IMG/VR virus record: IMGVR_UViG_2908764845_000006
Coordinates: 1-64,000 of that record
Origin: a virus
Lineage: Duplodnaviria; Caudoviricetes
Strand: one strand, 5' to 3'
Length of the DNA stretch: 64,000 bases
Under the pieces are notes generated by a model. It was given only the letters and a program-made list of their open reading frames with translations, was not told where the DNA came from and did not search any database. Below, piece after piece: positions 1,973 to 46,282 of this stretch (position 1 is its first letter; each line of letters starts with the position of its first letter). The position numbers and the translations under genes are program-made.

Positions 1973-2005
1973 ACAAGTCTGCTGTCGATGAGGTGATTCG
2001 CACGA

Positions 2006-3415
2006 ATGCCCAAGCAGCAACGGATTCGCGACCCCCTGCACGATCTAATCCAGTTTGATGTTGAGAGATCGCAGCTAGAGGGCGTCCTCTGGCGCGTCCT
2101 GCAGACCCGTCCGTTCCAGCGCCTCCGGCGGATCAAGCAGCTCGGCTTTTCGGACTTCGTTTATCCGGGCGCTACTCATTCGAGGCTCCTCCACAGCGTG
2201 GGGGTTTTCCACACCGCGCGAAGGCTCATGAGAGTGATCGAAAAGTACCTTCCCGCCAAAGATGCTCGCGTGGATCAGGCGCTCGCCGCAGCACTTGTGC
2301 ACGATCTTGGACATGGACCATTCAGCCATGCGTTCGAGAAAATCGGCGAGCGGTTCGATCTCAAGATGGCAAATCACGAGGCCGTCAGCGACATGCTCAT
2401 TCGAAACGGAGAGGTTTCCGATGTGCTGCGTGACATGGGCAGCGGCTTTGCAAACGACGTGGCGGACATGGTTAGCGGCAGTGGCACGCCAACGATCTAC
2501 TCGGCAGTCGTGTCAAGCCAGTTCGATGCTGACCGCCTCGATTACATGAGACGCGATCGCCTCATGGTTGGCAGTCAGCACGCGGGGATCGACTTTGAGT
2601 GGTTGGTTGAGAACCTCGAGGTTGGCGAGGTGCAGCATGGCGTCGACGAAACCTCGCTCAAGCCCGTTCAAACCTTTGTCCTTGGGCGCAAGGCCATCTT
2701 CGCCGCCGAAGCCTACGTGCTTGGGCTTTTCCAACTCTATCCAACCGTTTATTTTCACAAGGCAACGCGGGGCGCGGAGAAGATCTACACCGAGCTGCTG
2801 ACCCGCACCATAACCCTGATTAAGGACGGCTCGATCGAAAAAACTGGTCTTCCGAAAACGCATCCGCTCGTCAAGTTTGCTCAAACGCCCGATAATATCG
2901 ATTGCGCGCTATCGCTCGACGATACGGTTATTTGGGGTGGGCTTTCCCTTATGGCTGACAGCAACGACAAATGGATCGGCAGTCTCGCTGAGCGCTTGCG
3001 AGATCGCAAACTCTACAAGTGCATCGATGTGCGGGCTAAGATTGCGCATGATAAGGACGATGGTGCGGCCTCGTCTTCAGAGGCCGACGAGGTGTGCGCT
3101 GGCGTCCGAGACGAGATTGTGAAGTGCTTGGATGAATGGTCCGCCAAATCCCCCGATGAACCTCCGCGGATTTTGATCGATGAGGTCGAACGGTCCCCTT
3201 ACAAAGAGTTGACCGAGGGCGCGAAAGGTCCGCTCAGCCAGATTAATATCCGTACTGAGGGTAACCACTTGGCCGATCTTTCAAAGCGGTCAAACGTTGT
3301 GGCGGCACTTAAGACCTACAAGGCCTTCCGTCTTTACCACGCCGATGGTGATGAAGAGGCTCGAAGGAAGGTGATGGAAATCGTAGACGCGGGGATATCA
3401 AAATGGCCGGCATAG
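2006..3415 (+). CDS. HD-domain phosphohydrolase (YwfO/SAMHD1-like dNTP triphosphohydrolase family)
   Basis: RDPLH, FQRLRRIKQLG, ATHSRLLHSVG, HDLGHGPFSH and DADRLDY motifs. Confidence 0.9.
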   Translation: MPKQQRIRDPLHDLIQFDVERSQLEGVLWRVLQTRPFQRLRRIKQLGFSDFVYPGATHSRLLHSVGVFHTARRLMRVIEKYLPAKDARVDQALAAALVHDLGHGPFSHAFEKIGERFDLKMANHEAVSDMLIRNGEVSDVLRDMGSGFANDVADMVSGSGTPTIYSAVVSSQFDADRLDYMRRDRLMVGSQHAGIDFEWLVENLEVGEVQHGVDETSLKPVQTFVLGRKAIFAAEAYVLGLFQLYPTVYFHKATRGAEKIYTELLTRTITLIKDGSIEKTGLPKTHPLVKFAQTPDNIDCALSLDDTVIWGGLSLMADSNDKWIGSLAERLRDRKLYKCIDVRAKIAHDKDDGAASSSEADEVCAGVRDEIVKCLDEWSAKSPDEPPRILIDEVERSPYKELTEGAKGPLSQINIRTEGNHLADLSKRSNVVAALKTYKAFRLYHADGDEEARRKVMEIVDAGISKWPA

Positions 3416-3918
3416 ATTACGCACATGGAGCAGCAGCTATCGTTCGCGATGCAGGGGGCCACATCGTAGGGCGTACCAAGTTTCAGAAGATCGCCTTCTT
3501 TCTGGAAGCGGCAGGCGTCGGATCAGGTTTTCCTTTCCGGTACAAGCACTATGGACCCTACTCCGAGTTGCTCGCCGCTGCAGCTCAGCATGCAGCGGCC
3601 TTGCGGCTGATCGTCGAAAACGAATCCGTTGCAGCTTGGGGTGGGCAGTATTCGACCTTCTACACTCAAATGCCTGCCGATCCTTCGATGCACCCCGCTC
3701 GCGCGCGACTCGCGCAAGAGATGGCAAATGCCGATGCCGTGGAACTTGAACTGGCTGCCACCGCCGCTTTCCTAGCGTACGAGAGATTTCCTGACCCTTG
3801 GGCTGAAACAGCTCGCCGAAAACCGGAAAAGGCAGAGGGCGGACGGCTTGAGCGAGCGAAGCAGCTGTACCTACGCCTTCAACAAATACCGGCACCTCAT
3901 CAACTACCAGCGATTTGA
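3403..3918 (+). CDS. YwgA-like protein (SocA/Panacea-like fold inferred)
   Basis: GRTKFQKIAFFL and YKHYGPYS motifs; overlaps the HD gene end. Confidence 0.7.
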   Translation: MAGIDYAHGAAAIVRDAGGHIVGRTKFQKIAFFLEAAGVGSGFPFRYKHYGPYSELLAAAAQHAAALRLIVENESVAAWGGQYSTFYTQMPADPSMHPARARLAQEMANADAVELELAATAAFLAYERFPDPWAETARRKPEKAEGGRLERAKQLYLRLQQIPAPHQLPAI

Positions 3919-4653
3919 CGGCAGGTTGCAACTAGCCCAACCGCCTCGGCCGCCAGCGGGCACCCGGGTCGAGTTCGACAAGAAAGGCTGGAGGCATTAG
4001 ATCATCGCCGCCTACCAACACTTAGTCTAGCTGGTGTTAGAAGTAGCGTCCCGACAGATTGGCCGACAGAAATGGGCTGCCGGCGTAGTGGCCGAAGGGC
4101 TACCGTACCGACGAAGTCAACCACGGGCGGTCTGGCACAATCTTTGGGGGCTCGCCCCCCATTACTCGCCTTTCTACCCGGTTGCGGCGGGTAATTGGTG
4201 TGGTTGCTACATGACATGAGGCTGGGGCCGCGCGCCAAACGTCATTCTGGCGGGCGCTCCAATCGGACGACCAAGCCCCGGATGCCGAACCCGACGGCTG
4301 CTGCGCCGCATCGCCAGATCGGCCAACGTTAATCGCCGGACCCCATCTTCACCATTTAGCTTGTGGCGTTTGCGCCATAATACCGCAGCGGCGAACAATA
4401 CTTGCTCCGAGAGACCGCACAACCCTTGCATTTTCTTAGTTCGCACCACAGCTTGCGGGTGATCGCGCTTCTCGAAAAGGGTAATCGGATGAACGACAAA
4501 ATCCCGGCGGAGCCGCCAGTTGGGCAAGGCATCAGCATGATCTCGCTTAAGAAGGAGATCGACGAACTGCGGGAGGAAATCCAGCAACTTAAGAAATTCA
4601 TAAATGACAATATCTGGGATCCAGGGCGTGTAGGCAAACAGCCGCACCCCTAA

Positions 4654-4748
4654 CCCGTCTTATTCGTCAGAGTGCGCCTGAGGGGCTGGCGAGCGTGGTG
4701 TAAAGCGCTGATGCGGCGTAGGATTCGGTTGCAAAGCCAACCCCATCA
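4654..4748 (+). mobile_element. 95-bp fragment of the IS1380 left end
   Basis: Near-identical to the reverse complement of 1792-1886. Confidence 0.9.
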
Positions 4749-4768
4749 TCCGGAGCGGGTTCGGACCG

Positions 4769-4960
4769 ATGAGCGTCGCCCAATATCAAAGGCTGGACGA
4801 AGCATGCCGGTTGCCCGATACGGCTTTTCATCTCCGGAGACGAGAGCAGCTTCTACATCGGGACCGACGAGCAGCACGAGCTGCGCATCGAGATCCCGCC
4901 GACGTTCTGGCGGACCTTTGGCGAGCTGCCGACGATCTTGACCGTCGCAAACTGGAATGA
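4769..4960 (+). CDS. hypothetical protein
   Basis: 63-aa ORF directly upstream of the TIR gene. Confidence 0.35.
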   Translation: MSVAQYQRLDEACRLPDTAFHLRRREQLLHRDRRAARAAHRDPADVLADLWRAADDLDRRKLE

Positions 4961-4973
4961 GGACTGAGCTGGA

Positions 4974-5642
4974 ATGTTAGCGTTTATGAGTTACCAGACT
5001 GCCGACCGCGAAATCGCCGCGGGCGTCGCTCAACTTCTCGACACTCTCGGCGTTCAGTCCTTTATGGCCCACGAGCATATCGAAGTCTCCGTCGAGTGGC
5101 GCGACGAGATCCTCCGCCAGCTCGGCTTGGCCGATCTTTTCGTGCCGATCTTGAGCCAGCGGTACTACGCGTCGATTTGGTGCAAACAGGAGTCCGGGAT
5201 CGCAGCCTTTAGGCGTATGACGTTGATCCCGCTCTCCTTGGACAGCTCAATCCCCCAAGGCTTTATCAGTCACGTCCAGTCATCGCTCCTTCAGGGCGGC
5301 CAGGCCACGTACCATCAGCTTATGCGCGGCGTAGCTTCTCGGGACATCCGTTTTGCGATTGACGCTGGAATCAGGCTTGTGGCTGATGCGCGCAGCTTCA
5401 GGCAAGCCGAATATCATTTCGAAGCCGTTCGCCCCTATCTCCACGGCGCGAGCGACCAGCAGGTCACTCACTTGCTAACGGTCTCAGCCCAGAACGGGCA
5501 AGTGTGCCACGCCAGCCTATGCGCCCGTGACTACCTGCCGCCACTCATGCAATCGCACGGACACTTATTGCCACTAGATGTGCGCGAAGGGCTTTCGCAG
5601 GTATTAGCCCAATATGCACCCCCTCCGCCGACCGTGCGTTAA
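4974..5642 (+). CDS. TIR-domain protein
   Basis: AFMSY, FVPILSQRYYASIWCKQE (catalytic Glu position); helical C-terminal region. Confidence 0.85.
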   Translation: MLAFMSYQTADREIAAGVAQLLDTLGVQSFMAHEHIEVSVEWRDEILRQLGLADLFVPILSQRYYASIWCKQESGIAAFRRMTLIPLSLDSSIPQGFISHVQSSLLQGGQATYHQLMRGVASRDIRFAIDAGIRLVADARSFRQAEYHFEAVRPYLHGASDQQVTHLLTVSAQNGQVCHASLCARDYLPPLMQSHGHLLPLDVREGLSQVLAQYAPPPPTVR

Positions 5643-5993
5643 TAGGTGCACATGAACGATTTTTTGGACCTCGATCCATACGAGGATTTGCCGGATGATC
5701 CGGAAGAGGCCTTCCTTAATCTAACTAGCTTTGGCGTCTGGTGCTTTGGTGGCAAGCCGCTCAAGCAAGATTTTGGCGTGATCGAGCCTCGTGTTCATGG
5801 TGAGAGCTATTGGCACGGTGAGTATTCCTCGCTGGTGATTCGAAACGCTCTCAGCTTGGTAGAGAAACCGGGCAATACTACTGGCGGTTGGCGGCTATCC
5901 ACGATCCCCACAGGCATGCTCAGCTTTAAAGCAGCCAGTTTTTCAGAGGAATTTTGTTGGCCGGTGTGTATTAATGTATCGCCCCTCCAAAAA

Positions 5994-6011
5994 GTGTGTA
6001 TTAATACACAC
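5994..6011. promoter_or_regulatory. probable HicB operator palindrome
   Basis: Perfect palindrome GTGTGTATTAATACACAC abutting the hicA ATG; partial copy GTGTGTATTAAT at 5964-5975. Confidence 0.7.
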
Positions 6012-35187: not shown

Positions 35188-36789
35188 TTAGCCGTTGGCG
35201 ATGTTCGAGATCATCGCGAAGGCGGGCGGGAAGTAGCACTGCAGCACTTCGTCGGCGTAGACGCCCGACTCGTACTTGCGGGTCCGCAGCGGCCACTCGA
35301 TCTGGTAGTAGTCCTGACGGCAGCGGACCTGCAGGACGTTGGCGATACCCGAGACCGGGTACGGCAGCGACTTCGACGTCATCACGATCGTGCCCGCGGG
35401 CATGTTCGGATGGATGCGGATGTCGAGGGTCTTGGCGCCGCCCATGCTGAAACGGTTCAGATAGGTGCGGACCATGATGCCGCCGCCGAGGCTGTCGCGC
35501 TCGGAGTTGAACACGAACCGCTGGGCCGCGTTGGACGAGCCCTGCAGGATCTTCTTGGAGATGTTCAACGCCTCCTGCGAGTTCACCCAGATGGTGTCGG
35601 GCGACAGGCGGAAGTTGTCCCAGCGATCCTTCAGCGCGGCGTCGATCTCGACGATGCCGCCGGAGCCGTCCGAGGTCAGCGGCGTACCGACGCCGGCAGC
35701 GCCGGTGGCGAGACGGCCGACATAGGCATTCGACCCGGCCTTGAGCAGCTGGGTCATGATGCCGTCGAACACGAGGCTGTTGGTCGACTGGTCGCTCGAC
35801 GGCAGCGAGGCTGCGGTCTGCGTGCCGGTCGCGGCCGCCACGATGGCAACCGAGTTGATCGAGGTGATCGCACCGAGCACCTCGGAGCCAGCCGCGCCCC
35901 AGAACCAAGCGTAGCCGCAGGCGCCGTTGACCGCCGCAACGGTCGCCGTCAGCGAGCCGGTGGTGCCGCTCGCGACGGTGCCGGTGGCAGCCACCGACTT
36001 CTGCGCGGAGCCGCCGCCGAACGTGTCGGACGAGCCGTCAGCGTTGGCGCGGGTGATCGAGGCCTGGATACCGCCGGCGATCGAGCCGTTGACCATGGCG
36101 TCGAACGCGAGCGCGACGCAGATCACCGAGTAGGTCGCGGCAGCCAGAACGCCGCCGGTGATCGAGGCCGCGACCGTCGGGGTCGGGGTGATGCCGAGCT
36201 GCAGCGAGGTGTTGCCGCCGAGCAGCAGCGCCTCTTCGCCGATCATGGTGGCCTCGAGGCCGACCTTGGCCGCGATCGCCCGGATGTCGTCGAAGCCGCG
36301 GCCAGCGTACTCGGCCTCGAAGTCGACGTTGGTTTCCAGACCGATGCCGCGGTAAGCCGCCGCGTAGTCCTGCGTGGAGACCGCCTGCACGCCGCCGCGG
36401 TTACCGGCCGAGACGCCGATCCGCATGTTGGCGGTGTTCACGCTGGTCACGGCGCGCCAAGCGGCCTGAATGCCGCCCTTGCCGGTCACGCGCGGAATTT
36501 CGTTCCGCAGCGGAGTGAGAACCGGGTACACGAACTTCGCGCCCAGCTCGAGATCGTAGTAGGTCAGGCCCGTGGTGGGCGAGCCGGCCTGCTGGAACGT
36601 CGCCGACTTGGCGAACATCTCCGGGACGAAGTTGCGCGCCTCGTGCGACTTCGACATCGACGCGAGGAAGGACTGCACTTCGGCGGCGATCGCAGCGCGA
36701 TCGAGGTTGCCGTTGACGGTGTAGATCGGCGCCCACGACTTCTGCAGCTCGTGCGGCAGGAAGTCGGTATACTTGACGAGAGCGTTCAT
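35188..36789 (-). CDS. major capsid protein
   Basis: YDLE..AK...P..TPLRN.IPR start and Y.DEVL..Y.P end; follows the protease gene. Confidence 0.88.
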   Translation of the reverse strand: MNALVKYTDFLPHELQKSWAPIYTVNGNLDRAAIAAEVQSFLASMSKSHEARNFVPEMFAKSATFQQAGSPTTGLTYYDLELGAKFVYPVLTPLRNEIPRVTGKGGIQAAWRAVTSVNTANMRIGVSAGNRGGVQAVSTQDYAAAYRGIGLETNVDFEAEYAGRGFDDIRAIAAKVGLEATMIGEEALLLGGNTSLQLGITPTPTVAASITGGVLAAATYSVICVALAFDAMVNGSIAGGIQASITRANADGSSDTFGGGSAQKSVAATGTVASGTTGSLTATVAAVNGACGYAWFWGAAGSEVLGAITSINSVAIVAAATGTQTAASLPSSDQSTNSLVFDGIMTQLLKAGSNAYVGRLATGAAGVGTPLTSDGSGGIVEIDAALKDRWDNFRLSPDTIWVNSQEALNISKKILQGSSNAAQRFVFNSERDSLGGGIMVRTYLNRFSMGGAKTLDIRIHPNMPAGTIVMTSKSLPYPVSGIANVLQVRCRQDYYQIEWPLRTRKYESGVYADEVLQCYFPPAFAMISNIANG

Positions 36790-36842
36790 CGCTCAAGACT
36801 CCAAAACTGGTGATTGCGGGGTGTGGTGGGTGCGCCGTGGTG

Positions 36843-36948
36843 CCGTCCCCGGCAGGCGCGAGCAGACGCGCGACGTCGTTCCCGCAGTGACCGTCCCCGG
36901 CCCGGGTTCTCGTCGCGATGAAGGCTGCGGCGCCCTACCCGTCCCCGG
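36843..36948 (-). repeat. three CCGGGGACGG hairpin repeats in the capsid gene leader
   Basis: CCGTCCCCGG on the + strand at 36843, 36891 and 36939 (48-nt period). Confidence 0.85.
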
Positions 36949-36978
36949 GTGGGCGCCTAGCCGAATTTCAGGAAGTGA

Positions 36979-39942
36979 TCAGACCTGGCCGCGCGTCGGC
37001 ATCTGCCGACGCATGGACGCCTCGGTGGCTCGGGTGTTGAGCTCCTCGGACGTGATCTTCGCCAGATCACTGGTCACCATGTCGATGGCCTTCTCCGCGA
37101 CGCGGTAGGGACCGTTCGGCACGGCGGCCGGATAGAGCGAGACCTCGGCGACACGCTTGGTGAGGTCGCCGTTCTGGGTGGTCAGGGTCGCGATCTCCTC
37201 GCGGAGCGGACCCGTAGCCTTGGCGACCTCGTCGCTGATCTTCAGCGCGATGCCGGCCTCGATGTCCTTGAACAGCTGGGCCTGCGCGGCCGAAGCGGCA
37301 GCGACCTGCGCCTTGAGCAGATCGTTCGCCTCGATCGCCTTGCCGAGATCGTCGCCGGCGGCCTTCTCCGCAGCACCGCAGCAGCCCTTGTCGAGCTTGA
37401 CCATGGTGTCGTGGATTTCCTTGATCGCGGCGCGATCCTTGGCGCTGTGCCGCGCGCCGCGCTTGAGGAGATCGGCCAGCGGAGCTGCGCGCGTCAGCGC
37501 CTCGCTCTGCTCTTCGGCCTTGATGTGGGTCAGCACGGTGTCGAGCACGGCCGCGACGATGTCGCCGAGGTCGACCAGCGCGGCGCCGAAGCGGTCGCGC
37601 AGCTCCTTCGGCACCTCGATGCCCCACTCGCCCTCGGTCATGTTCTCGCACGCCTGAACGCACGCGAGCATGTTGGTGAGGTCGCCCATCATGTAGAGGC
37701 CGGCGCCCTTGGCGAGCTCGTCGCCCTCGATCGCCTCGCCCTTGAACACGAGGCCCTCGGGCAGCTTGTCGACGAGCGACAGCGCGCGGGCGGCCTTGAC
37801 CAGCTCGCGGGTCTCCACGTGGGAGGCGTTCAATGCGTCGAACAGCGTGATCGCCTTCTCGACGCCCTCGGCGGTGGTGAGGTCAGCCTTCTCGACGGTT
37901 GCGGTCTCGCCTTCGGGCTTCGCATCGCCATCAGCGCCCTTGGCGACCTCGGCGGGCTTCTCGCCGGTCTTGAGCGCATCGAGCACCGGAGCTGCCGCCT
38001 TGGCGACCGCGTCCTTGGCTTCGAGCTCGGCGAGCGCCTTCAGCAGGTCGCCCTTCTTGGCGAAGGTCTGGTTCGGCAGGCGCGGCGACGCCCAGACCTG
38101 GGCGACGTCGTCGGGAGTGGTCTTGGTCAAATCGACGCCCTCGGTTGCGGTGTTTTCGATCGTGCCACCGGCTTCGACGGTGGCGGTGGCGCCCTTGGCG
38201 ACCTCGGCAGCGGCCGCCTCAGCGGCGACCGGCTCAGCAGCGGCCTGCTCGACGGGAGCGGCCTTCTTGGCGGCGGCCTCGTCCTCGAGCGCCTTGCGGG
38301 CGTCGGCGATGTGCACCAGCCAGTCACCACCCTTCTCGGTCGCGATCTCGGTGGCGCGCTTGGCGACCATGTCGTTGGTGATGACGATCTCCTCGGTGGT
38401 CTCCGGCTTGGAGGCCTCGCCGCCAGCGAACTTGCGCATCTCCTCGGTGCCGTCCGCCTTGATCATGGAGAACGTGGCGGAGGGCCCGCACGGCAGGTCG
38501 ACCAGCGAAATCTCGGAGGGCGCGGCGGTATAGCGCTTTGCGTCGCCATCCTGCCAGCGCTTGAGGTAGCGGCCGCCGATGGAGAAGCCGGTGTAGACGC
38601 CCTCCTCGACCTTCTTCCACTCGTTGTCGTCGACGACCTTGGCGGCGATGTCGATCGCCTTGCGCGCATCGTCGAAGCCGATGTCGGTCAGCTTGCCGGC
38701 CGCGATCGCCGAGTGCATCGAACGCACGTTGCCGAGGCTCTTGCCGTCGGTCACCTTCGCGATGTCGCCCGACCACTTCTCGAAGTGCGGCTTCGAGGTC
38801 GCGTAGTCGAAGATCTCGTTGGCGCGATCGACTTCCTCGACCACTGCGGTGCCGTAAACGATGCGCTTGGCGGCATCGACCTTCGCGATTTGCACGAAGA
38901 GCGAAAGATTATCCATGTCCAGTTCTCCTGCGTCGCGTTTTTCGACGACGGTTGACATCCAGTTTTCTTTGATCTCGGCCCACTGCTCGGGTCCGAACTC
39001 AAGCACGCCGTCGAACGGCGCCATCTCGTCGATGACGATGTCCGCTCCCTGATAGGTGAGCGTGACGTGCGATTTGAAGTCAGGCCACCGCCAGACGGCG
39101 CCTGCGTCGTGGATCTCGCGATGACGCGAGGCGAGCTCGTCGGAGTGGAAGCGAAGCACGAGGGCTTCACCTTCCTTGCCGAGGCGCTCGAGGTGACGCT
39201 CACCGCCTTCGACCCGGAAGATCGGCACGGTGGAGCGCGGCACGCCGGACCATTCGACCGGCTCTTTCGAGTAGGCGATGGTGACGTGGAAATCGTCGAT
39301 GGGCAGCGTGACCGGGAAGCCGTTGGCTGCGGCCCAGCTCTTGAGTGCCTCGCCGTTGCGAAGGCTGCGCTTGATGTAGAGCGTGCGCTTGTCGCCCTTG
39401 GCGAAGCGCATCGGGCCGCCCTCGACGACGGAAATGACGAGCGGCAGCGAAGCGCGGACGCCGGGATGCAGCGGCTCGGGCGGCGCGCGCAGATATTCCC
39501 AGCGCGCCTCGGTGTGCTCGTCGTTCAGCTTGACGGCGAGCTTCTCCTCGACGCGCTGAACGAAGGTGGTGAAGTCGACCCGGCCGGTTGCGATCTGGCA
39601 GACCTGGCCGCGGATGCCTGCAGGGTCGAGCGTGATGCCGGCCTCTTCGAGCGTCTCGCGGATTGCTGCCTCTTCGGCCGTCTCGCCCGCGTCGATGCCC
39701 CCGCCCGGGAAATTCCACTCGCCGCCGTGGTCCCCACCCGGGGCCCGCTTCATGAACAGCGCGCGTCCATCCGGGGTCACGATGGCGATGCCGGCCGCCT
39801 GATGGCGGCCCGCGTCCGGATCGACGGCCGCCTTGGTGGCGTCCTTCTTCTTTTTCTTCTTCTGGCCCTCGAGGTCGTAGCCCTGAAGGCCGGACGTTGC
39901 CGACGCCGGCGCGGCGAAGGTCGATTTCTCCGCCGCGGTCAT
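36979..39942 (-). CDS. NUDIX hydrolase + Acb1-like 2H phosphoesterase + prohead protease + scaffold polyprotein
   Basis: Nudix box GGGIDAGETAEEAAIRETLEEAG; two HxT motifs (FHVTIAY, SHVTLTY); RSMH..GFSIGG..EISLVD.P protease; Ala/Glu/Lys-rich tail. Confidence 0.85.
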   Translation of the reverse strand: MTAAEKSTFAAPASATSGLQGYDLEGQKKKKKKDATKAAVDPDAGRHQAAGIAIVTPDGRALFMKRAPGGDHGGEWNFPGGGIDAGETAEEAAIRETLEEAGITLDPAGIRGQVCQIATGRVDFTTFVQRVEEKLAVKLNDEHTEARWEYLRAPPEPLHPGVRASLPLVISVVEGGPMRFAKGDKRTLYIKRSLRNGEALKSWAAANGFPVTLPIDDFHVTIAYSKEPVEWSGVPRSTVPIFRVEGGERHLERLGKEGEALVLRFHSDELASRHREIHDAGAVWRWPDFKSHVTLTYQGADIVIDEMAPFDGVLEFGPEQWAEIKENWMSTVVEKRDAGELDMDNLSLFVQIAKVDAAKRIVYGTAVVEEVDRANEIFDYATSKPHFEKWSGDIAKVTDGKSLGNVRSMHSAIAAGKLTDIGFDDARKAIDIAAKVVDDNEWKKVEEGVYTGFSIGGRYLKRWQDGDAKRYTAAPSEISLVDLPCGPSATFSMIKADGTEEMRKFAGGEASKPETTEEIVITNDMVAKRATEIATEKGGDWLVHIADARKALEDEAAAKKAAPVEQAAAEPVAAEAAAAEVAKGATATVEAGGTIENTATEGVDLTKTTPDDVAQVWASPRLPNQTFAKKGDLLKALAELEAKDAVAKAAAPVLDALKTGEKPAEVAKGADGDAKPEGETATVEKADLTTAEGVEKAITLFDALNASHVETRELVKAARALSLVDKLPEGLVFKGEAIEGDELAKGAGLYMMGDLTNMLACVQACENMTEGEWGIEVPKELRDRFGAALVDLGDIVAAVLDTVLTHIKAEEQSEALTRAAPLADLLKRGARHSAKDRAAIKEIHDTMVKLDKGCCGAAEKAAGDDLGKAIEANDLLKAQVAAASAAQAQLFKDIEAGIALKISDEVAKATGPLREEIATLTTQNGDLTKRVAEVSLYPAAVPNGPYRVAEKAIDMVTSDLAKITSEELNTRATEASMRRQMPTRGQV

Positions 39943-39964
39943 GGCGTCTCCGGGAGCTGGGGGA

Positions 39965-41173
39965 TCAGGTGAGCGTGTTGGCCCACGCCGTGATGGTCGG
40001 CGCGATGTTTGCGTTGCCAAGCGCGTTCGGGTGGATGCCGTCGGCGGTGAGAACGCCGCCCGAGACCTTCCACTTGCCGGGGTTGGCCGGATCTTCGACC
40101 ACCGCGGCGACGTCGATGACGCCGTCGATGGTCACGCCGACCTGCGTCAGCAGCCATGCGTTGAACAGGCCGCGGATGCCGGTGCTTTCGTAGTTGGCAA
40201 CGACGGTCTGGCCGCCCGTCGTGGTGAAGCCGTCCGACGAGGTGCAGCGCGGCAGCAGCGTGCACTGGTAGACCTTGAGGCCCCGCGCCTTCGCCGACTT
40301 CCAGTTCGCGAGGGCCAACGTCTGCATGCTGGCGAGCGAGACGCCGCCGGCAGGATCGTTGTTGCCCATGTCGGTGACGTAGTGGGTGGCGTACTCCATC
40401 AGGCTGTCGCGCCGCCAGCCGTGCCCGATTGCACCCTCGCCCTGCAGGCTGTCGCCCGCGCGCGCCAAGTTCATATACGGGATGGCGCCGCCCGAGGCGC
40501 CGACCAACCCGCGCTCGAGGAAGCCGTTTGCGCCGACGTTGTTGTTCACGTCAGCCACGCCGACCGCGATGCTGTCACCGCGGATCACGACGGCGGGCGT
40601 CGGGGTCAGCGGATAGCCGAGCACTGCGAGCGGACCATAGCCCTTTGAGACCAGCACGCCGCCGTTCGCCACCATAGCGCCGGTGAAGCCGAGAACCTGG
40701 CTGCTGCCGGAGGTGTTCTCGACGAAGGTGTCGGCGGTGGTCAGCGTCAGCACGCCGTACTGCACGAACTGACCGGCGGAGGCGACCGTGACGCCGGTAC
40801 GGATGGCAAAATCGGTGCTCGGCGCCAGATCGGCGCCGATCTTGTCGGAGATGAAGTAGTGGGCGCCGGCGGCGAGCAGCCGGTTGACCTGCGCGCCGAA
40901 GAACGCCCGGCGGGTGAACACGCCGGTCAGCGACTCGAGCGCCGCCTCCACCGTGATGTCGTTCGGCGCGTCGGCGTCCGAGCTGGTCGCGTTGGCGAGG
41001 AAGTTGCCGTACAGGAGGCGGATGTCGCGCACATAGACCGGCGCCGAGCGCATCTTGATGCGGCTCTCGAACCGGGTCGCGGTGCCGCCGCCCTGCGTGT
41101 AGTCGCCCATGACGCGGCCGCGCGTGGCGACGACCTGCAGCTTGCGCGGGGAGATGCGTTGGAAGTCGGTCAT
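39965..41173 (-). CDS. SGNH/GDSL hydrolase (esterase)
   Basis: GDSI, GNND and DGIHP blocks. Confidence 0.85.
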   Translation of the reverse strand: MTDFQRISPRKLQVVATRGRVMGDYTQGGGTATRFESRIKMRSAPVYVRDIRLLYGNFLANATSSDADAPNDITVEAALESLTGVFTRRAFFGAQVNRLLAAGAHYFISDKIGADLAPSTDFAIRTGVTVASAGQFVQYGVLTLTTADTFVENTSGSSQVLGFTGAMVANGGVLVSKGYGPLAVLGYPLTPTPAVVIRGDSIAVGVADVNNNVGANGFLERGLVGASGGAIPYMNLARAGDSLQGEGAIGHGWRRDSLMEYATHYVTDMGNNDPAGGVSLASMQTLALANWKSAKARGLKVYQCTLLPRCTSSDGFTTTGGQTVVANYESTGIRGLFNAWLLTQVGVTIDGVIDVAAVVEDPANPGKWKVSGGVLTADGIHPNALGNANIAPTITAWANTLT

Positions 41174-42083: not shown

Positions 42084-42279
42084 TGAACTTGTCCCCCAAG
42101 GGTTCGAGCTCGCCGACCGAGACATACTTGTCCGGTCGCGCGAGCTGAGCGGCCGCCGCGTTGCGGTGAGCCATCTCGTTGATCCGGCGAAGCTCGGCGA
42201 GCGTCAGCATCTGCTGGCCGCTCTCCTTCGCCTCGTTCCGGCGAGCGCCGCGGTATGATCCGGCTGGTCGGGCCATCAC
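42076..42279 (-). CDS. small hypothetical protein
   Basis: Coupled to the portal stop. Confidence 0.45.
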   Translation of the reverse strand: MMARPAGSYRGARRNEAKESGQQMLTLAELRRINEMAHRNAAAAQLARPDKYVSVGELEPLGDKFNG

Positions 42280-43958
42280 TTGTCCTTCTTGGGCGGCGCC
42301 TTGGCGCCGACCTTGGTTGAGGGGGGCGATGTGGAGGGGGTCTTGGTGGAGCCCGGCTCGGGCGCCGTGGGCTGCGGGACGGCTTGCGCCATCGCCTTCG
42401 CCTCGGTGACCTTCTGGTCGAGCTGACCGTTGTCGATGTTGACGTAGCCGGTTGCGGTCTTGACCATCAGCTGGCTTGCCGCAGGGTTCGGATCAGGCTC
42501 CTCGCCGATCTTCTCCCGGACCTGATTGATGGTCAGGATGCCGTCCTCGGCGTAGCCGCGCAGGATGGTCGACTGCTTCTCCGGGTCGATCTCCTGCTCT
42601 TCCGCCCACGCGAACTCGAGGTCGTCGTCGGAGAACTCGCGCATCAGCACGTCGTTGAGGGTCTCGGTGACCCACTGCTTCATGGGCTCGATGCCCTCCT
42701 CCTCGGCCTGCTTCTCGTGCTGCTCGGCGATCGAGCGGTTCGAGAGCGAGACGAAGGCGGCCGGCGGATAGGAGAACGCGAAGCAGACGATGCGGACCAG
42801 CCACTCGTCGAACTCGTTCTTGAGCGGCGGCTCCTTGAGCGGCGTGTAGGCGTTGCCGGAGCCGGTCGGGATGAACTTCATCCGGCGACGGTTGGCGAGG
42901 TTGCCCGAGAACAGATCGTCCCAATACTGCTGGAAGCGTGCAGTCTGGTCCGGCGTCCACTCGGCCGGCAGCGAATACACCGCGTCCGGCTGGTTGCCTT
43001 CGCGGAAGTATTCGAGCTGCGCCAGCGAGCGGCGCAGCGCGATCGAGACGGTCATCACGACCTGCTCGACCGGCGAATAGCCATAGACCCGGTTAGGACG
43101 CAGATTGAGCGGCCGATAGATCAGGTCCGCCGTGGTGTAGTTCACTGCCGGGAGACCTTTCAGCACCTGCTGATAGGCCGGAGGCAGCATCGCGAACTTC
43201 GGCGGCTTCATGCCGATCGGCGTCTGATGCGCGATCATGGAGCCGGGCACCAGCCGGAAGCCGAAGGTCCGGTGGTTCTCCAGCGTGATGGTGTCGCCGT
43301 TCCACGTGAAGTCCTGCCCGGTGAACGGGATGGGCTCCGGGGTGCGGCCCCAATCGTCGATCACCCGCTTGATGGTGCCGCCGTCGACGTAGCGCAGGCC
43401 GATCAGCCCGCCGCCACGGTTGCGCTCGCAGAAGATCGACGGGGCGTCGATCACGAGCAGATCCTCGAGGATCGCGCGCAGCCAGGATCGGAAGGTCATC
43501 TCCCGGTCGGGCCGCTTGAAGAAGCGCGTGATCTCCTTGATGCGGTTCTGCTGAGCCGCAGGCAGCTCGGAGATCGGCGGCCGCTTCTTCTTGCTGCTGT
43601 CCTCGTGCTTGACGCGGATGGTCCACGGCAGGCGGCACATCTGATCCTTGCGCCGCTCGATGACGAGCCGCATCGGGTCGTAGCTGTCGGCGAGGTTGCG
43701 CAGCGCCGGGAACGAGATTTCCTCGTAGGTGCGCGGCGTGGTGGCGAGGTTGTAGCCCGGGATGAAATCCCAGACGCGGCCTGCGACCTCGGGCGGGGCA
43801 ATCGGCTGGATCGGGTTGAGAGGTCCGAACCAGTCGGCGCCCTGCGCGGTGCCGTAGCCCGCGCCCGGCGTGACCGGGCGCCCTTGCGACGACACGTTGA
43901 CGTCGTAGGGAGAGAGCGACCGCATCGAGCGGCCTTCTCCGCGAGGGGTGGACACCAT
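42276..43958 (-). CDS. portal protein
   Basis: YGYSPVEQ, YF.EGN.P and GILTINQVR..G..P motifs. Confidence 0.9.
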   Translation of the reverse strand: MVSTPRGEGRSMRSLSPYDVNVSSQGRPVTPGAGYGTAQGADWFGPLNPIQPIAPPEVAGRVWDFIPGYNLATTPRTYEEISFPALRNLADSYDPMRLVIERRKDQMCRLPWTIRVKHEDSSKKKRPPISELPAAQQNRIKEITRFFKRPDREMTFRSWLRAILEDLLVIDAPSIFCERNRGGGLIGLRYVDGGTIKRVIDDWGRTPEPIPFTGQDFTWNGDTITLENHRTFGFRLVPGSMIAHQTPIGMKPPKFAMLPPAYQQVLKGLPAVNYTTADLIYRPLNLRPNRVYGYSPVEQVVMTVSIALRRSLAQLEYFREGNQPDAVYSLPAEWTPDQTARFQQYWDDLFSGNLANRRRMKFIPTGSGNAYTPLKEPPLKNEFDEWLVRIVCFAFSYPPAAFVSLSNRSIAEQHEKQAEEEGIEPMKQWVTETLNDVLMREFSDDDLEFAWAEEQEIDPEKQSTILRGYAEDGILTINQVREKIGEEPDPNPAASQLMVKTATGYVNIDNGQLDQKVTEAKAMAQAVPQPTAPEPGSTKTPSTSPPSTKVGAKAPPKKDK

Positions 43959-43974: not shown

Positions 43975-45684
43975 TTACGTTGTGGGCCCCGCTTGAGGCG
44001 TTGGCGCGGGCAGCGGGACGCGCTCCCAGCCCCGTTGCATGAAGGCTGAGGCGTCGTCCTTGCTGACGGCGATGATGCGGTTGGCCGGCGGGTATGCTGC
44101 CGTGCCGTCCATCAGGTAGACGGTCGATACGTCGTCCGGCACGCGGATCAGCACCTTGTCGCGCGGAGGCGTGGCCGGTGTGATCTCGAAGCCGAACTGG
44201 GGACCTTCCGGAGGCGGGGCGCTTGCGGCCCCGCCCTGCTGCTGCGCGCCCTCGGCGAGCCGCTTGTAATACTCGATCCAGCTGTTGGCGCCGGAAGCGA
44301 GAGCCAGGTCGTTCACCGCCCAGATCCATGCGTCGGCACGGTCAGGCGACTTCGGTCCGCCGTAACCGAGCGTGGTGAAGGCGGTGAGCTGGTCCTCCAG
44401 CTCGTTGAAGCGTCCGACGTGGCGCACGCCGTTGCGGGTATACAGCGTGGAGATCGGCTCGGCGCGGACGTGCTTGCCCTTGCTTGCATGCACCACGCGC
44501 ACCGGGACGTTACCGTCCAGCGAGCGGATGACGTAGGCGACCATGTCGCCGCCGTAGTTGGTCTCGGCGATGATGTGGTCGGCGCCGTAGGCGTGGTAGG
44601 CGGCGATTGCCGCCTTGCCCCAGTTCTCCGGACCGCCGACGATCGACAGGTCGGCGCGCAGATAGACACGGTTGTCCTTGCCGAGCGAGGCGACAATGAT
44701 GCCGATCTCGTCGTTGAGCGGCTTCTGCTCGACGTCGGTCTTGTCGCCGGGCTCGGATGCGCCGGACGGGTCGATCGAGACCACGGTCTGCACATATTCC
44801 GGCTCGTCGCCGACGACGACGCGGCAGCTCTCGATCATCTCGGTGGTCCAGAGCGCGCCGACGTTCTCGTCGATGTAGGCGCCTTCCCAGAACCGCTTGC
44901 GATAGTTGCCGGTCGAGTTTTCGAGTTCCTTGATGTAGCCCGCGTCAAGGTTCGCGATGTTGTCAGCGGGATTGATGAACATCCGCTGGTAGTTCTCGGG
45001 GTCGTTGATCGCGACCTTGGTCTCTGGGTCCTTGAGCTCGCCGAACAGGACGTTGGTCCAGTGCGACTTGCCGACCGGGTTGATGTCGTAGAACATCCGC
45101 TGCCGGCAGCCGGCGACGACCTGGGCGAGACGCGAGCGGACCAGCTTGGCGGTGTACCAGCTGATCTGCGAGCACTCGTTGAGGAAGATCGTGGCGTATT
45201 CGGCGCCGAGGATCTTGTCGGCGCGCGAGGCGTCGTCGAGACCGCCGATCCAGATTTCCGATCCGTTCGGAAACCGCACCACGTTGTGGGGGTGGCGCGA
45301 ATGCCTGTATGTCGTCCCCGGGAAGAAGAGCTTCATCACCTTCGGCAGGGTGTCGAGACCCACCGAGGCGTCGGCATGGACCGCGCGGTTGCGCAGGATC
45401 ACATGGCGGGAGCCCGGGAAGCGCAACGCGCGCAGCACGATGGTGCGGACGAGCGTCGTGGTCTTGCCGGAGCGGGCGCCGCCGACCAGACAGGTGTGGC
45501 GCTGATCGCCACCGAGCAGGATGGTGGCCTTCTCCTGCGCCGGCGTTGCGCCCTTCTCGCCCCATGACGAGAGCGCGGGGCCGCCATTGTGCCCGACCTT
45601 GGTCGGGCCCTCGGCGCCGACGATGACGAACTGAGGGCCCCTGCTGGGGGCTTTTTTCTGCCGCGCGGCCTTAGAGCTTGGCAT
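43975..45684 (-). CDS. terL: terminase large subunit
   Basis: GGARSGKT Walker A, IFLNE Walker B, SIDP and SPDRADA nuclease motifs. Confidence 0.92.
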   Translation of the reverse strand: MPSSKAARQKKAPSRGPQFVIVGAEGPTKVGHNGGPALSSWGEKGATPAQEKATILLGGDQRHTCLVGGARSGKTTTLVRTIVLRALRFPGSRHVILRNRAVHADASVGLDTLPKVMKLFFPGTTYRHSRHPHNVVRFPNGSEIWIGGLDDASRADKILGAEYATIFLNECSQISWYTAKLVRSRLAQVVAGCRQRMFYDINPVGKSHWTNVLFGELKDPETKVAINDPENYQRMFINPADNIANLDAGYIKELENSTGNYRKRFWEGAYIDENVGALWTTEMIESCRVVVGDEPEYVQTVVSIDPSGASEPGDKTDVEQKPLNDEIGIIVASLGKDNRVYLRADLSIVGGPENWGKAAIAAYHAYGADHIIAETNYGGDMVAYVIRSLDGNVPVRVVHASKGKHVRAEPISTLYTRNGVRHVGRFNELEDQLTAFTTLGYGGPKSPDRADAWIWAVNDLALASGANSWIEYYKRLAEGAQQQGGAASAPPPEGPQFGFEITPATPPRDKVLIRVPDDVSTVYLMDGTAAYPPANRIIAVSKDDASAFMQRGWERVPLPAPTPQAGPTT

Positions 45685-46159
45685 CAGCCGCCGAGATCAC
45701 GAACACGGGCTGGGCCCCGCCCGCGACCTCGCCGGAGTGCTCGACCTTCTGCGGCGCATAGAGCCCGAGCAGCTTGGCCTGAAACTCCATGGTGCGACGT
45801 GCCTGATCCATGCTCTCGCCGACCCCCTCGAAGGCGTCGGCCAGGGTTGCGGTGAGCATCATCTCGAGGCGCGCGGCCATAAGGCTGCGCAGCTCTTCGA
45901 CGCCCTCGATCGGCTGGCTCTCCATCGCATAGCGGACGAGCTTGTAGGCGTAGGTGCGATTGACCTTCAGCTCCTCGCCGATCTGCTGGAACGTGTAGCC
46001 CTGCAGGCGATACTGAACGGCCTCCTCGGCCTTGCGCTTGAACGCCGCGGTGACAGCGATCTCGCGGGGCGAGGTCGATGAGTTCTTGACGGTTTTCTTG
46101 CCCTTCTTCCTCCGACGGTCCTTGCCGTCCGACTGGGCTGCGACTGCTTTGTTGGGCAT
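45671..46159 (-). CDS. terS: terminase small subunit
   Basis: HTH (G.TFQQIGEEL), AKLLGL.AP.KVEHSG; overlaps terL. Confidence 0.8.
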   Translation of the reverse strand: MPNKAVAAQSDGKDRRRKKGKKTVKNSSTSPREIAVTAAFKRKAEEAVQYRLQGYTFQQIGEELKVNRTYAYKLVRYAMESQPIEGVEELRSLMAARLEMMLTATLADAFEGVGESMDQARRTMEFQAKLLGLYAPQKVEHSGEVAGGAQPVFVISAADAKL

Positions 46160-46282
46160 GGGGACACTGAATTTCGTTGGTCTCGTGGGTCTCGATGGTC
46201 GGGTGGCGGGCGCCACAAAGAGAAAGGGGCCGCCCTGCGAAGGCGACCCCTTTCCCTAAGCTCGGTGACGAGCTTGGCAGGC

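Follow-up and report, generated by a model that had tools for sequence, protein, structure and literature searches.

A prophage prohead protease-scaffold protein with NUDIX and Acb1-type domains as predicted N-terminal head cargo

The polyprotein gene and its prophage setting

The stretch of DNA analysed here, referred to as the window, comprises positions 1 to 64,000 of the IMG/VR record IMGVR_UViG_2908764845_000006 (Duplodnaviria; Caudoviricetes), 64,000 nucleotides that are part of the chromosome in a 10.4-Mb genome. At 36979..39942 on the minus strand, the window contains an open reading frame (ORF) of 987 aa plus stop encoding a cargo-protease-scaffold polyprotein. Judged from its sequence, the gene is a head-maturation protease fused to a scaffold; its N-terminal cargo consists of two enzyme modules, namely a NUDIX hydrolase and an Acb1-type 2H phosphoesterase. 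The open frame spans 36979..40020 (minus strand), and the ATG at 39942 is located 22 nt past the stop of the upstream gene, behind GGAGA-N5.

The gene lies in the late block of a contractile-tailed prophage, all of which is encoded on the minus strand. Upstream are the large terminase (43975-45684) and the portal (42276-43958), both assigned by Pfam and PHROG. Downstream is the 533-aa major capsid protein (35188..36789; phrog_13692, 2.8e-138, matching from residue 57), beyond which are genes for the head-tail adaptor, sheath, and tape measure. A terminase-portal-capsid head module therefore frames the polyprotein ORF, placing its effector domains on a head-internal protein within a terminase-portal late block. 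A preliminary description of the window, made from the sequence without database searches, placed the ORF directly before the capsid gene. The capsid is indeed the next gene, but the two are not directly adjacent: a gap of 189 nt (36790-36978), unusually long for a late-operon intergenic region, separates the polyprotein stop from the capsid start.

The protease-scaffold carrier and its internal start

Residues 343-505 (38428..38916, minus strand) form a prohead serine protease of the T4 gp21/HK97/assemblin fold. An AlphaFold2 model of residues 335-560 (predicted local distance difference test score, pLDDT, 88) matched T4 gp21 (5jbl) in Foldseek with an E-value of 1.2e-4 and a probability of 1.0. 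VIA-align gave a Z of 13.7 and a root-mean-square deviation of 2.9 A over 137 residues for the same pair, with herpesvirus assemblins next at Z ~7. The model also has 186 matches in BFVD at E <= 0.001, many of them named prohead protease or XkdF. The likely catalytic residues are H410 (38713-38715, minus strand) and S454, which lies within the sequence GFSIGG (38581-38583, minus strand); these roles are assigned from conservation, both residues being invariant in alignments of 13, 49, and 60 sequences. The preliminary description proposed profile and Foldseek comparisons domain by domain, and for the protease the comparison recovered the gp21 fold. Its label of an XkdF/HK97-type protease is borne out by the prohead protease fold and by matches to PHROG head maturation proteases (2.5e-9 and 2e-6) but not by Pfam: Peptidase_S78_2 (XkdF) scores 18.2 bits, below the cut-off of 24, with residues 432-458 alone matching, so that by Pfam's threshold the protein falls outside XkdF. 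Two of the BFVD matches, A0A6J5N5R9 and A0A6J5RFH1, are uncultured-phage proteins of 620-680 aa named ferritin/Dps, which suggests that some prohead proteases bear ferritin/Dps-like cargo.

The remainder of the protein, residues 506-987 (36982..38427, minus strand), is mostly alpha-helical with disordered linkers rich in Ala, Glu, and Lys, as in scaffolds, and the preliminary reading of this part as a scaffold-like tail stands. Helices are located at residues 523-561, 630-658, 691-850, and 866-934, the last a long helix, and a phrog_21715 match covering residues 348-683 extends from the protease into the tail.

The ORF also contains a putative second start. An AGGAG-N8-ATG read from the sequence at 38914..38929 (minus strand) places M343 at the start of the protease. 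In unfused relatives the protease domain starts with Met, and this Met is kept, no more than 9 residues from the first strand, in 40 of 41 listed relatives with an N-terminal extension of more than 25 aa. A Shine-Dalgarno-like motif precedes 103 of 114 unfused starts, compared with 66 of 878 (7.5%) other in-frame ATGs in the same genes. Four fused loci with DNA, one of them metagenomic (L111), could be included in this comparison, and all four have such a motif before the protease-start Met. Since both the internal Shine-Dalgarno sequence and the Met are conserved, translation from M343 likely yields a second, cargo-free protease-scaffold product. Most copies in the procapsid are probably cargo-free as a result, a point overlooked by the preliminary description, and a nested isoform of this kind removes the objection that hundreds of 330-residue cargo copies would crowd the head. 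The C-terminal helical part, the position of the gene just upstream of the capsid gene, and the in-frame internal start can all be read from the sequence and together mark a protease-scaffold gene.

Long and short products made from one frame via an internal start, with the protease joined to the scaffold and encoded just before the capsid gene, are familiar from lambda C/Nu3, P2 gpO, and Mu I/Z. The window protein differs from the lambda C/Nu3 type in that the extra N-terminal part of the longer product consists of two unrelated enzymes rather than the protease, and in that its nested start is predicted from conservation.

The NUDIX and Acb1-type domains

The NUDIX hydrolase domain occupies residues 46-160 (39463..39807, minus strand) and is recognised by Pfam (PF00293, 1.3e-18; 67.8 bits against a cut-off of 21.1) and PHROG (phrog_1198, 9.6e-20). 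The Nudix box noticed in the preliminary description is complete at residues 81-103 (39634-39702, minus strand), every Glu, Arg, and Gly position of the pattern GX5EX7REUXEEXGU being present; among 41 relatives extended at the N-terminus, 17 also have the full pattern. RenU (6uuf, 1e-11) is the top match in the PDB. All equivalog models score far below their cut-offs, NCBIfam NudE for example reaching 19.2 bits against 169.

Residues 186-330 (38953..39387, minus strand) form the Acb1-type 2H phosphoesterase. The match to PF23474 (2.7e-33; 115.1 bits against a cut-off of 27) covers profile positions 1-143 of 144 and is the sole match to this family within the 10.4-Mb genome. The two HxT motifs of the preliminary description are H219-V-T (39268-39288, minus strand) and H292-V-T (39052-39069, minus strand). 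Both align to those of the Acb1 crystal chain 7t26 (E 7e-8), and H219 and H292 are invariant across relatives (alignments of 70 and 77); the Acb1-like assignment made there from the motifs is backed by the Pfam family. In the full-length AlphaFold2 model this region has a pLDDT of 74-91. Among solved structures, its nearest relative is the Pam3 portal's C-terminal domain (8hds, 3.9e-18), an Acb1-like domain of which no discussion was found in the accessible text of the Pam3 structure paper. Free Acb1, the product of T4 gene 57B, was characterised by Hobbs et al. 2022 (crystal entries 7t26/7t27), and its H44A/H113A double mutant is inactive (PMC9117128). Both T4 Acb1 and the window domain are 2H phosphoesterases with two HxT motifs; the former is a free protein of ~150 aa with characterised activity, whereas the latter, with an activity predicted from sequence, is embedded as one module in a head protein of 987 aa.

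To place the Acb1 domain among its relatives, 1.84 billion representatives were scanned with it in a profile-free search, giving 1928 matches at E <= 0.001. Among the best 150 of these, 17 are of 260 aa or less, 24 of 261-400 aa, and 109 longer. Pfam partners were determined for 147 of the 150 (3 were left out), with the qualification that several families can co-occur in one protein, and 146 of the 147 have the Acb1 Pfam match.

These relatives bear on a reading in which the two enzymes, whether injected or made in the cell, act on RNA: the 2H domain as an RNase or in RNA-end processing, and the NUDIX domain as an RNA 5'-end pyrophosphohydrolase or in decapping. Iyer et al. 2017, who described 2H domains fused to MuF or portal proteins, gave RNase action as one of two readings in the available text, the other being the breakdown of nucleotides from nucleotide-activated defence systems (PMC5512222). 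The best PHROG for the 2H part of the window protein is labelled 'RNA ligase' (phrog_755, 2.3e-21), LigT_PEase and 2_5_RNA_ligase2 match 20 and 12 of the 147 Acb1 relatives, respectively, and RNA pyrophosphohydrolase models appear among the weak NUDIX matches. However, the LigT-type matches are weak beside the 115 bits of the Acb1 model and the direct alignment to an Acb1 crystal chain, the RppH-type NCBIfam matches of the NUDIX domain reach 27-34 bits against cut-offs of 116-259, and the head block holds no RNA ligase partner. We consider an RNA-directed role improbable.

Capsid-like junctions flanking the cargo

In HK97-type maturation, a cut after Lys removes the N-terminal leader of the capsid protein. 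The window capsid has a 61-residue leader with the junction F-A-K61|S62-A-T-F (36595-36615, minus strand). In capsid genes adjoining the protease in the loci retrieved, the leader is variable and stops at a sharp conservation boundary. Of the 58 unique junction sites that these genes gave, P3 is occupied by Leu in 53, P2 by Glu, Ala, or Gly in 44, and P1 by Lys in 55, while P1' holds Ser (43), Ala (10), or Thr (4) and is followed by T-F. The consensus is L-(E/A)-K|S-T-F. The window system thus resembles HK97 in its conserved L-x-K|S junction and gp21/HK97-fold protease, and differs in having a short leader, scaffold function residing on the protease protein instead.

A site motif derived from these junctions, [LIVMF][EAGQS]K[SATG], occurs nine times in the polyprotein compared with 2.35 +/- 1.5 times in shuffled sequences (0 of 2000 reach nine). 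The three folds contain none of these sites, the NUDIX-Acb1 linker has one, and the other eight fall in the scaffold; when the scaffold alone is shuffled, its eight sites compare with 1.39 +/- 1.13 (0 of 5000 reach eight). The linker site, F-A-K182|G183 (39394..39405, minus strand), matches the F-A-K|S of the window's own capsid. A second candidate cut, V-V-E-K335|R336 (38938..38949, minus strand), lies between Acb1 and the protease in a disordered stretch (residues 330-345). Both positions recur in the family: a Lys followed by Ala, Ser, Gly, or Val is present 12-27 residues past an LHP anchor in 17 of 17 NUDIX-bearing relatives listed, and x-x-E-K is found just outside the Acb1 Pfam domain in 13 of 14 relatives listed. 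Of the Lys-small-residue sites named in the preliminary description, TK|AA (37|38), AK|GD (182|183), and the capsid AK|S (61|62) are present. IK|AD (495|496) is present too but lies inside the protease fold, where K495 is invariant in the family, and looks structural rather than a border site.

The third candidate cut is at the extreme N-terminus. Residues 7-26, STF...SATSGLQGYDLEG (39865..39924, minus strand), reproduce the opening ~20 residues of the N-arm of the mature capsid protein. They hardly vary in the family alignment and come right after E-K (K6|S7). Across the family, Lys or the initiator Met comes before this STF motif and a poly-Lys/Arg tract after it, represented in the window protein by the Lys6 tract at residues 28-33 (39844..39861, minus strand). 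Three relatives (P0022-P0024) have Acb1 placed ahead of the motif; in P0022 and P0024 the motif follows Acb1 directly (EK|STF), and in P0023 FKK lies between. The motif may serve for docking, for recognition by the protease, or for both. Frameshifting on the Lys6 tract was also considered, but the list of ORFs shows no other open frame at that point.

Exchangeable cargo on a conserved carrier

A whole-protein search returned 372 matches, the best 120 of which were used for counts. Twelve of these, the window's own included, carry both NUDIX and Acb1, six carry NUDIX alone, seven carry Acb1 alone, and 95 carry neither. The cargo-free relatives are plain protease-scaffold proteins of 540-900 aa. 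An identical protein (P0002) is among the matches, and the full-length relatives P0003 and P0004 are 82% and 53% identical, respectively. The whole fusion was found in no isolated phage, 0 of 131 matching records in the phage collection covering at least 80% of the query. Where both enzymes are present their order varies, NUDIX-Acb1 in five proteins (the window's and P0003-P0006) and Acb1-NUDIX in seven (P0007-P0012 and P0014).

A tree of 103 protease domains requires at least eight changes between cargo and no cargo. Cargo was labelled by regular expression and some labels are wrong (the Nudix box of P0004 ends in Ser, so that this protein was scored as Acb1-only), and the count therefore uses any cargo versus none. 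The window protein falls within a clade of 18 rows, all cargo-bearing (SH-aLRT 95). In species-representative genomes, relatives of the protease were found in 320 candidate stretches, mostly prophages of Hyphomicrobiales, with cargo in 2 of the best 80 loci.

These comparisons can be set against the idea that the fusion is a scar, formed when an upstream NUDIX-Acb1 gene lost its stop, with the M343 product alone being of consequence and the long form rare, unpackaged, or degraded. In favour of such an event, the old Shine-Dalgarno sequence and ATG are intact inside the ORF, and cargo-free proteins predominate among the best 120 relatives. Yet the 25 that have cargo keep it in frame at 40-82% identity, with intact catalytic motifs, permuted orders, and conserved linkers, the 18-member clade is cargo-bearing throughout, and independent fusions exist on other carriers. 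An accidental fusion is accordingly very hard to credit.

Other modules also occur in the family. P0015, P0020, and P0068 have a ChaB domain inserted in the middle of the scaffold instead of at the N-terminus, indicating that the scaffold itself can carry modules. A small Cys-rich module (C-x2-C ... C ... H-C) follows the STF motif in P0005-P0007, P0011, P0014-P0017, P0020, P0025, and P0032 and is not present in the window protein. P0017, P0025, and P0068 contain an extra N-terminal domain of ~180 aa.

The same enzymes on other head-internal proteins

The partners of the 147 Acb1 relatives include many head proteins. DUF2213 is found in 17, Phage_portal_3 in 14, Peptidase_S78_2 in 14, Phage_portal in 12, Portal_Mu in 10, Phage_Mu_F in 7, and Peptidase_S78 in 5, while NUDIX itself accompanies Acb1 in 12 and ChaB in 7. 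No tail, lysis, or replication families are among the listed Pfam partners. The NUDIX-Acb1 pair also occurs on a DUF2213 carrier (P0125 and P0126). DUF2213 'head maturation protease' and phrog_6216 proteins in IMG/VR also include fusions with a NUDIX domain of the window protein's subtype at the front, and the annotated portal gene of the cultured Burkholderia phages Bcep781, Bcep43, Bcep1, and BcepNY3 encloses a related NUDIX. It is chiefly this repeated independent fusion to head-internal proteins that points to the interior of the head as the place where the enzymes are wanted.

Acb1 polypeptides also carry an ADP-ribosyltransferase exoenzyme domain (11 of 147), ART-PolyVal (5 of 147), or a further ADP-ribosyltransferase (2), as well as Zeta-toxin kinases (3), inteins, topoisomerase IB, and a domain resembling inorganic pyrophosphatase. 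Such combinations are typical 'polyvalent' architectures. Many of the NUDIX-carrier fusions in IMG/VR (L081, L082, L098, L100, and L102-L104) start with a conserved ~45-aa peptide (phrog_2423; MPLE/MPLK...GSS), which may be another head-targeting tag.

That head-fused effectors might be packaged and injected has been proposed before. Iyer et al. 2017 put this forward for such effectors generally (PMC5512222), and Iyer et al. 2022 suggested that 2H domains on MuF or portal proteins may counter SMODS, cyclic-mononucleotide, and CRISPR signalling (PMC9503650). Between them, the two papers predicted head-packaged 2H and Nudix domains on MuF, portal, and capsid-processing peptidase proteins (PMC5512222, PMC9503650). 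With these predictions in print, the novelty claimed in the preliminary description was overstated. The systems of Iyer et al. resemble the present one in having an effector on a head protein within the terminase-portal block that is predicted to be packaged and injected, and they are predictions throughout the accessible text. That text does not contain a 2H domain on a prohead protease-scaffold, the NUDIX-Acb1 pair, capsid-junction-like sites, the N-arm copy, or the nested start. No experimental report of a head-fused Acb1 or Nudix was found in the literature searched, figures and supplements being outside its reach. What is new is the two-enzyme cargo on a protease-scaffold carrier, together with the copied N-arm, the putative release sites of capsid type, and the nested start; further new points are the permuted cargo order among relatives and a host with the defences described below.

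Host defences and the timing of cargo action

The host genome contains two operons for CBASS (antiphage signalling by means of cyclic oligonucleotides), L191 on contig 3 and L192 on contig 1, both with patatin-type phospholipase effectors. One type consists of a CD-NTase and a phospholipase, the other of a CD-NTase, an E2 protein, and a phospholipase. In the operon without an E2-like gene, a 162-aa ORF lies between the cyclase and the effector. Two ThsB_TIR genes and several other TIR genes are also present. From this gene content, signals suited to Acb1-type and possibly NUDIX-type enzymes would be made by this host.

Such signals could also be met without any delivery. If the polyprotein is simply co-expressed late, in step with capsid, scaffold, and protease, its hydrolases would act in the cytoplasm of the producing cell, either as a proenzyme or once self-cleaved, against CBASS or TIR signals raised by late proteins, and their presence in the head would be incidental. 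The two CBASS operons of the host fit this reading, and evasion of Type I CBASS has been linked to mutations in virion assembly proteins in the available text of one report (10.1101/2023.05.21.541620). It also sits well with a characterised Acb1 that is not described as a virion protein in the accessible source, and with the fact that a portal-fused Acb1 cannot leave the portal without a cut. Against this, it is proteins inside the head in particular (portal, MuF, protease, and scaffold) that serve as carriers, with the partner list lacking tail, lysis, and replication families as noted above; the capsid-junction-like Lys sites flanking the cargo are sensible only if a prohead protease meets them; and a separate late gene would give equal timing with no burden on the scaffold. 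Late co-expression is in our estimation unlikely, though it deserves more weight than an RNA-directed role.

Proposed route of head loading, release, and delivery

The recurrent head-protein fusions and the capsid-junction-like Lys sites in the linkers are best fitted by a head-cargo reading. We therefore propose, at about even probability, that NUDIX and Acb1 enter the procapsid on a protease-scaffold isoform that bears them as cargo and are freed from it at Lys junctions. Two products would be made, a minority at full length and the rest from M343, with their ratio setting the cargo dose, and both would co-assemble in the procapsid via the C-terminal scaffold part. Once activated, the protease would cut the capsid leader at FAK|S, the scaffold at V/L-x-K|small sites, and the linkers at K6|S, K182|G, and K335|R. 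Folded NUDIX (~16-19 kDa) and Acb1 (~17 kDa) would thereby be freed, stay in the head, and exit with the DNA. In the next cell, Acb1 would hydrolyse the cyclic oligonucleotide signals of CBASS and similar systems, and NUDIX a pyrophosphate-containing nucleotide, the leading guess being ADP-ribose-derived signals.

Head contents are delivered in the case of the T4 internal proteins and Alt, which are targeted to the capsid, cut by gp21, and injected, IPI* countering a restriction enzyme (summarised in the accessible text of PMC5512222 and PMC9503650). The proposed route is alike in prohead-core loading, trimming by a gp21-fold protease, and delivery with the DNA before phage expression. It differs in that T4 cargo is encoded by separate genes with a short targeting leader, whereas the window cargo is covalently joined to the protease-scaffold. 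The T4 prohead cuts follow Glu sites, while the window's candidate cuts would follow Lys. A different virion-borne counter to CBASS is the ejectosome protein Gp15 of ICP3, which inhibits the CBASS effector CapV (10.1101/2025.07.23.666291). Gp15 is likewise a virion protein delivered at infection; according to the accessible text it is essential for ejection and acts by stoichiometric blockage of the effector, with no signal degradation and no fused enzyme.

A number of points weigh against head loading and delivery. CBASS is commonly set off at a late stage of infection, which leaves no obvious need for early delivery. A portal-fused Acb1 would stay on the portal unless cut, and joining an enzyme to a head protein is therefore not in itself a sign that it is injected. 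Among the candidate cuts, the K335 site has Arg at P1', which is seen in 0 of 58 capsid junctions, and the K6 site has Ala at P3, off the capsid consensus; a depletion of Lys sites in the enzyme folds was discarded as evidence, one being observed in residues 46-505 against 0.74 expected. The Shine-Dalgarno comparison includes only four fused loci, two with AGGAG at 8 nt and two with a 4-mer at 11 nt spacing. In the full-length AlphaFold2 model the NUDIX region is poor (pLDDT 35-59), so the NUDIX and Acb1 cargo assignments rest on sequence evidence, and equivalog scores far below their cut-offs leave the NUDIX substrate class wide. Lastly, in the accessible text of PMC9117128 the words fused, portal, virion, and packaged are absent and 'fusion' is used for expression tags alone; the one characterised Acb1 is thus not known as a virion protein. 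Of the head-cargo interpretation in the preliminary description, all four domain calls have been upheld and the reading best fits the comparative data, while the loading and cleavage of the cargo, its retention by the mature head, its injection, and its action on immune nucleotides are steps that we infer.

A broader generalisation can be offered tentatively, and we think it less probable than the route itself. The N-arm copy, Lys junctions, and nested start might together constitute a portable cassette to load, dose, and release, which in this phage would deliver a kit of two enzymes against both the cyclic-oligonucleotide signals of CBASS and the ADP-ribose-derived signals of TIR/Thoeris before phage expression. 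Whatever domain stood between the copied N-arm and the protease would then be packed in a set minority of scaffold copies, freed by the K|S rule that also governs capsid maturation, and injected.

If the head-cargo proposal is true, it would provide direct evidence of phages pre-loading signal-degrading enzymes into their heads, as predicted since 2017, and would change the view of when CBASS and Thoeris are evaded. The prophage is a practical test case and suits a first experimental test of the old head-cargo prediction: it looks complete and myovirus-like, its host has CBASS and ThsB-type genes, and the predicted limits of the cargo are exact to a single residue. A clean genetic handle on the cargo is offered by the nested start, and the modular layout suggests a natural route for loading foreign proteins into capsids.

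Other genes in the window

Between the portal and the protease-scaffold gene is a 402-aa gene (39965-41173, minus strand) with a GDSL/SGNH-esterase-like C-terminal half (Pfam 1.4e-5, below the cut-off; phrog_8480, 1.7e-53). As it occupies the usual slot of the minor head (MuF-like) protein, it could encode a further head-associated enzyme. Directly upstream of the large terminase, in the small-terminase position, the gene at 45671-46216 (minus strand) matches phrog_645 (6.1e-23), the 'Rnase E' label of which is probably a misleading family label. Finally, a 222-aa ORF at 4974-5642 (plus strand) contains a TIR_2 domain (E 7.7e-14; match at 4983-5294) and sits in a stretch of low GC content (2001-6000, GC 0.57). 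It may be a defence gene at the prophage edge or one carried by the prophage.

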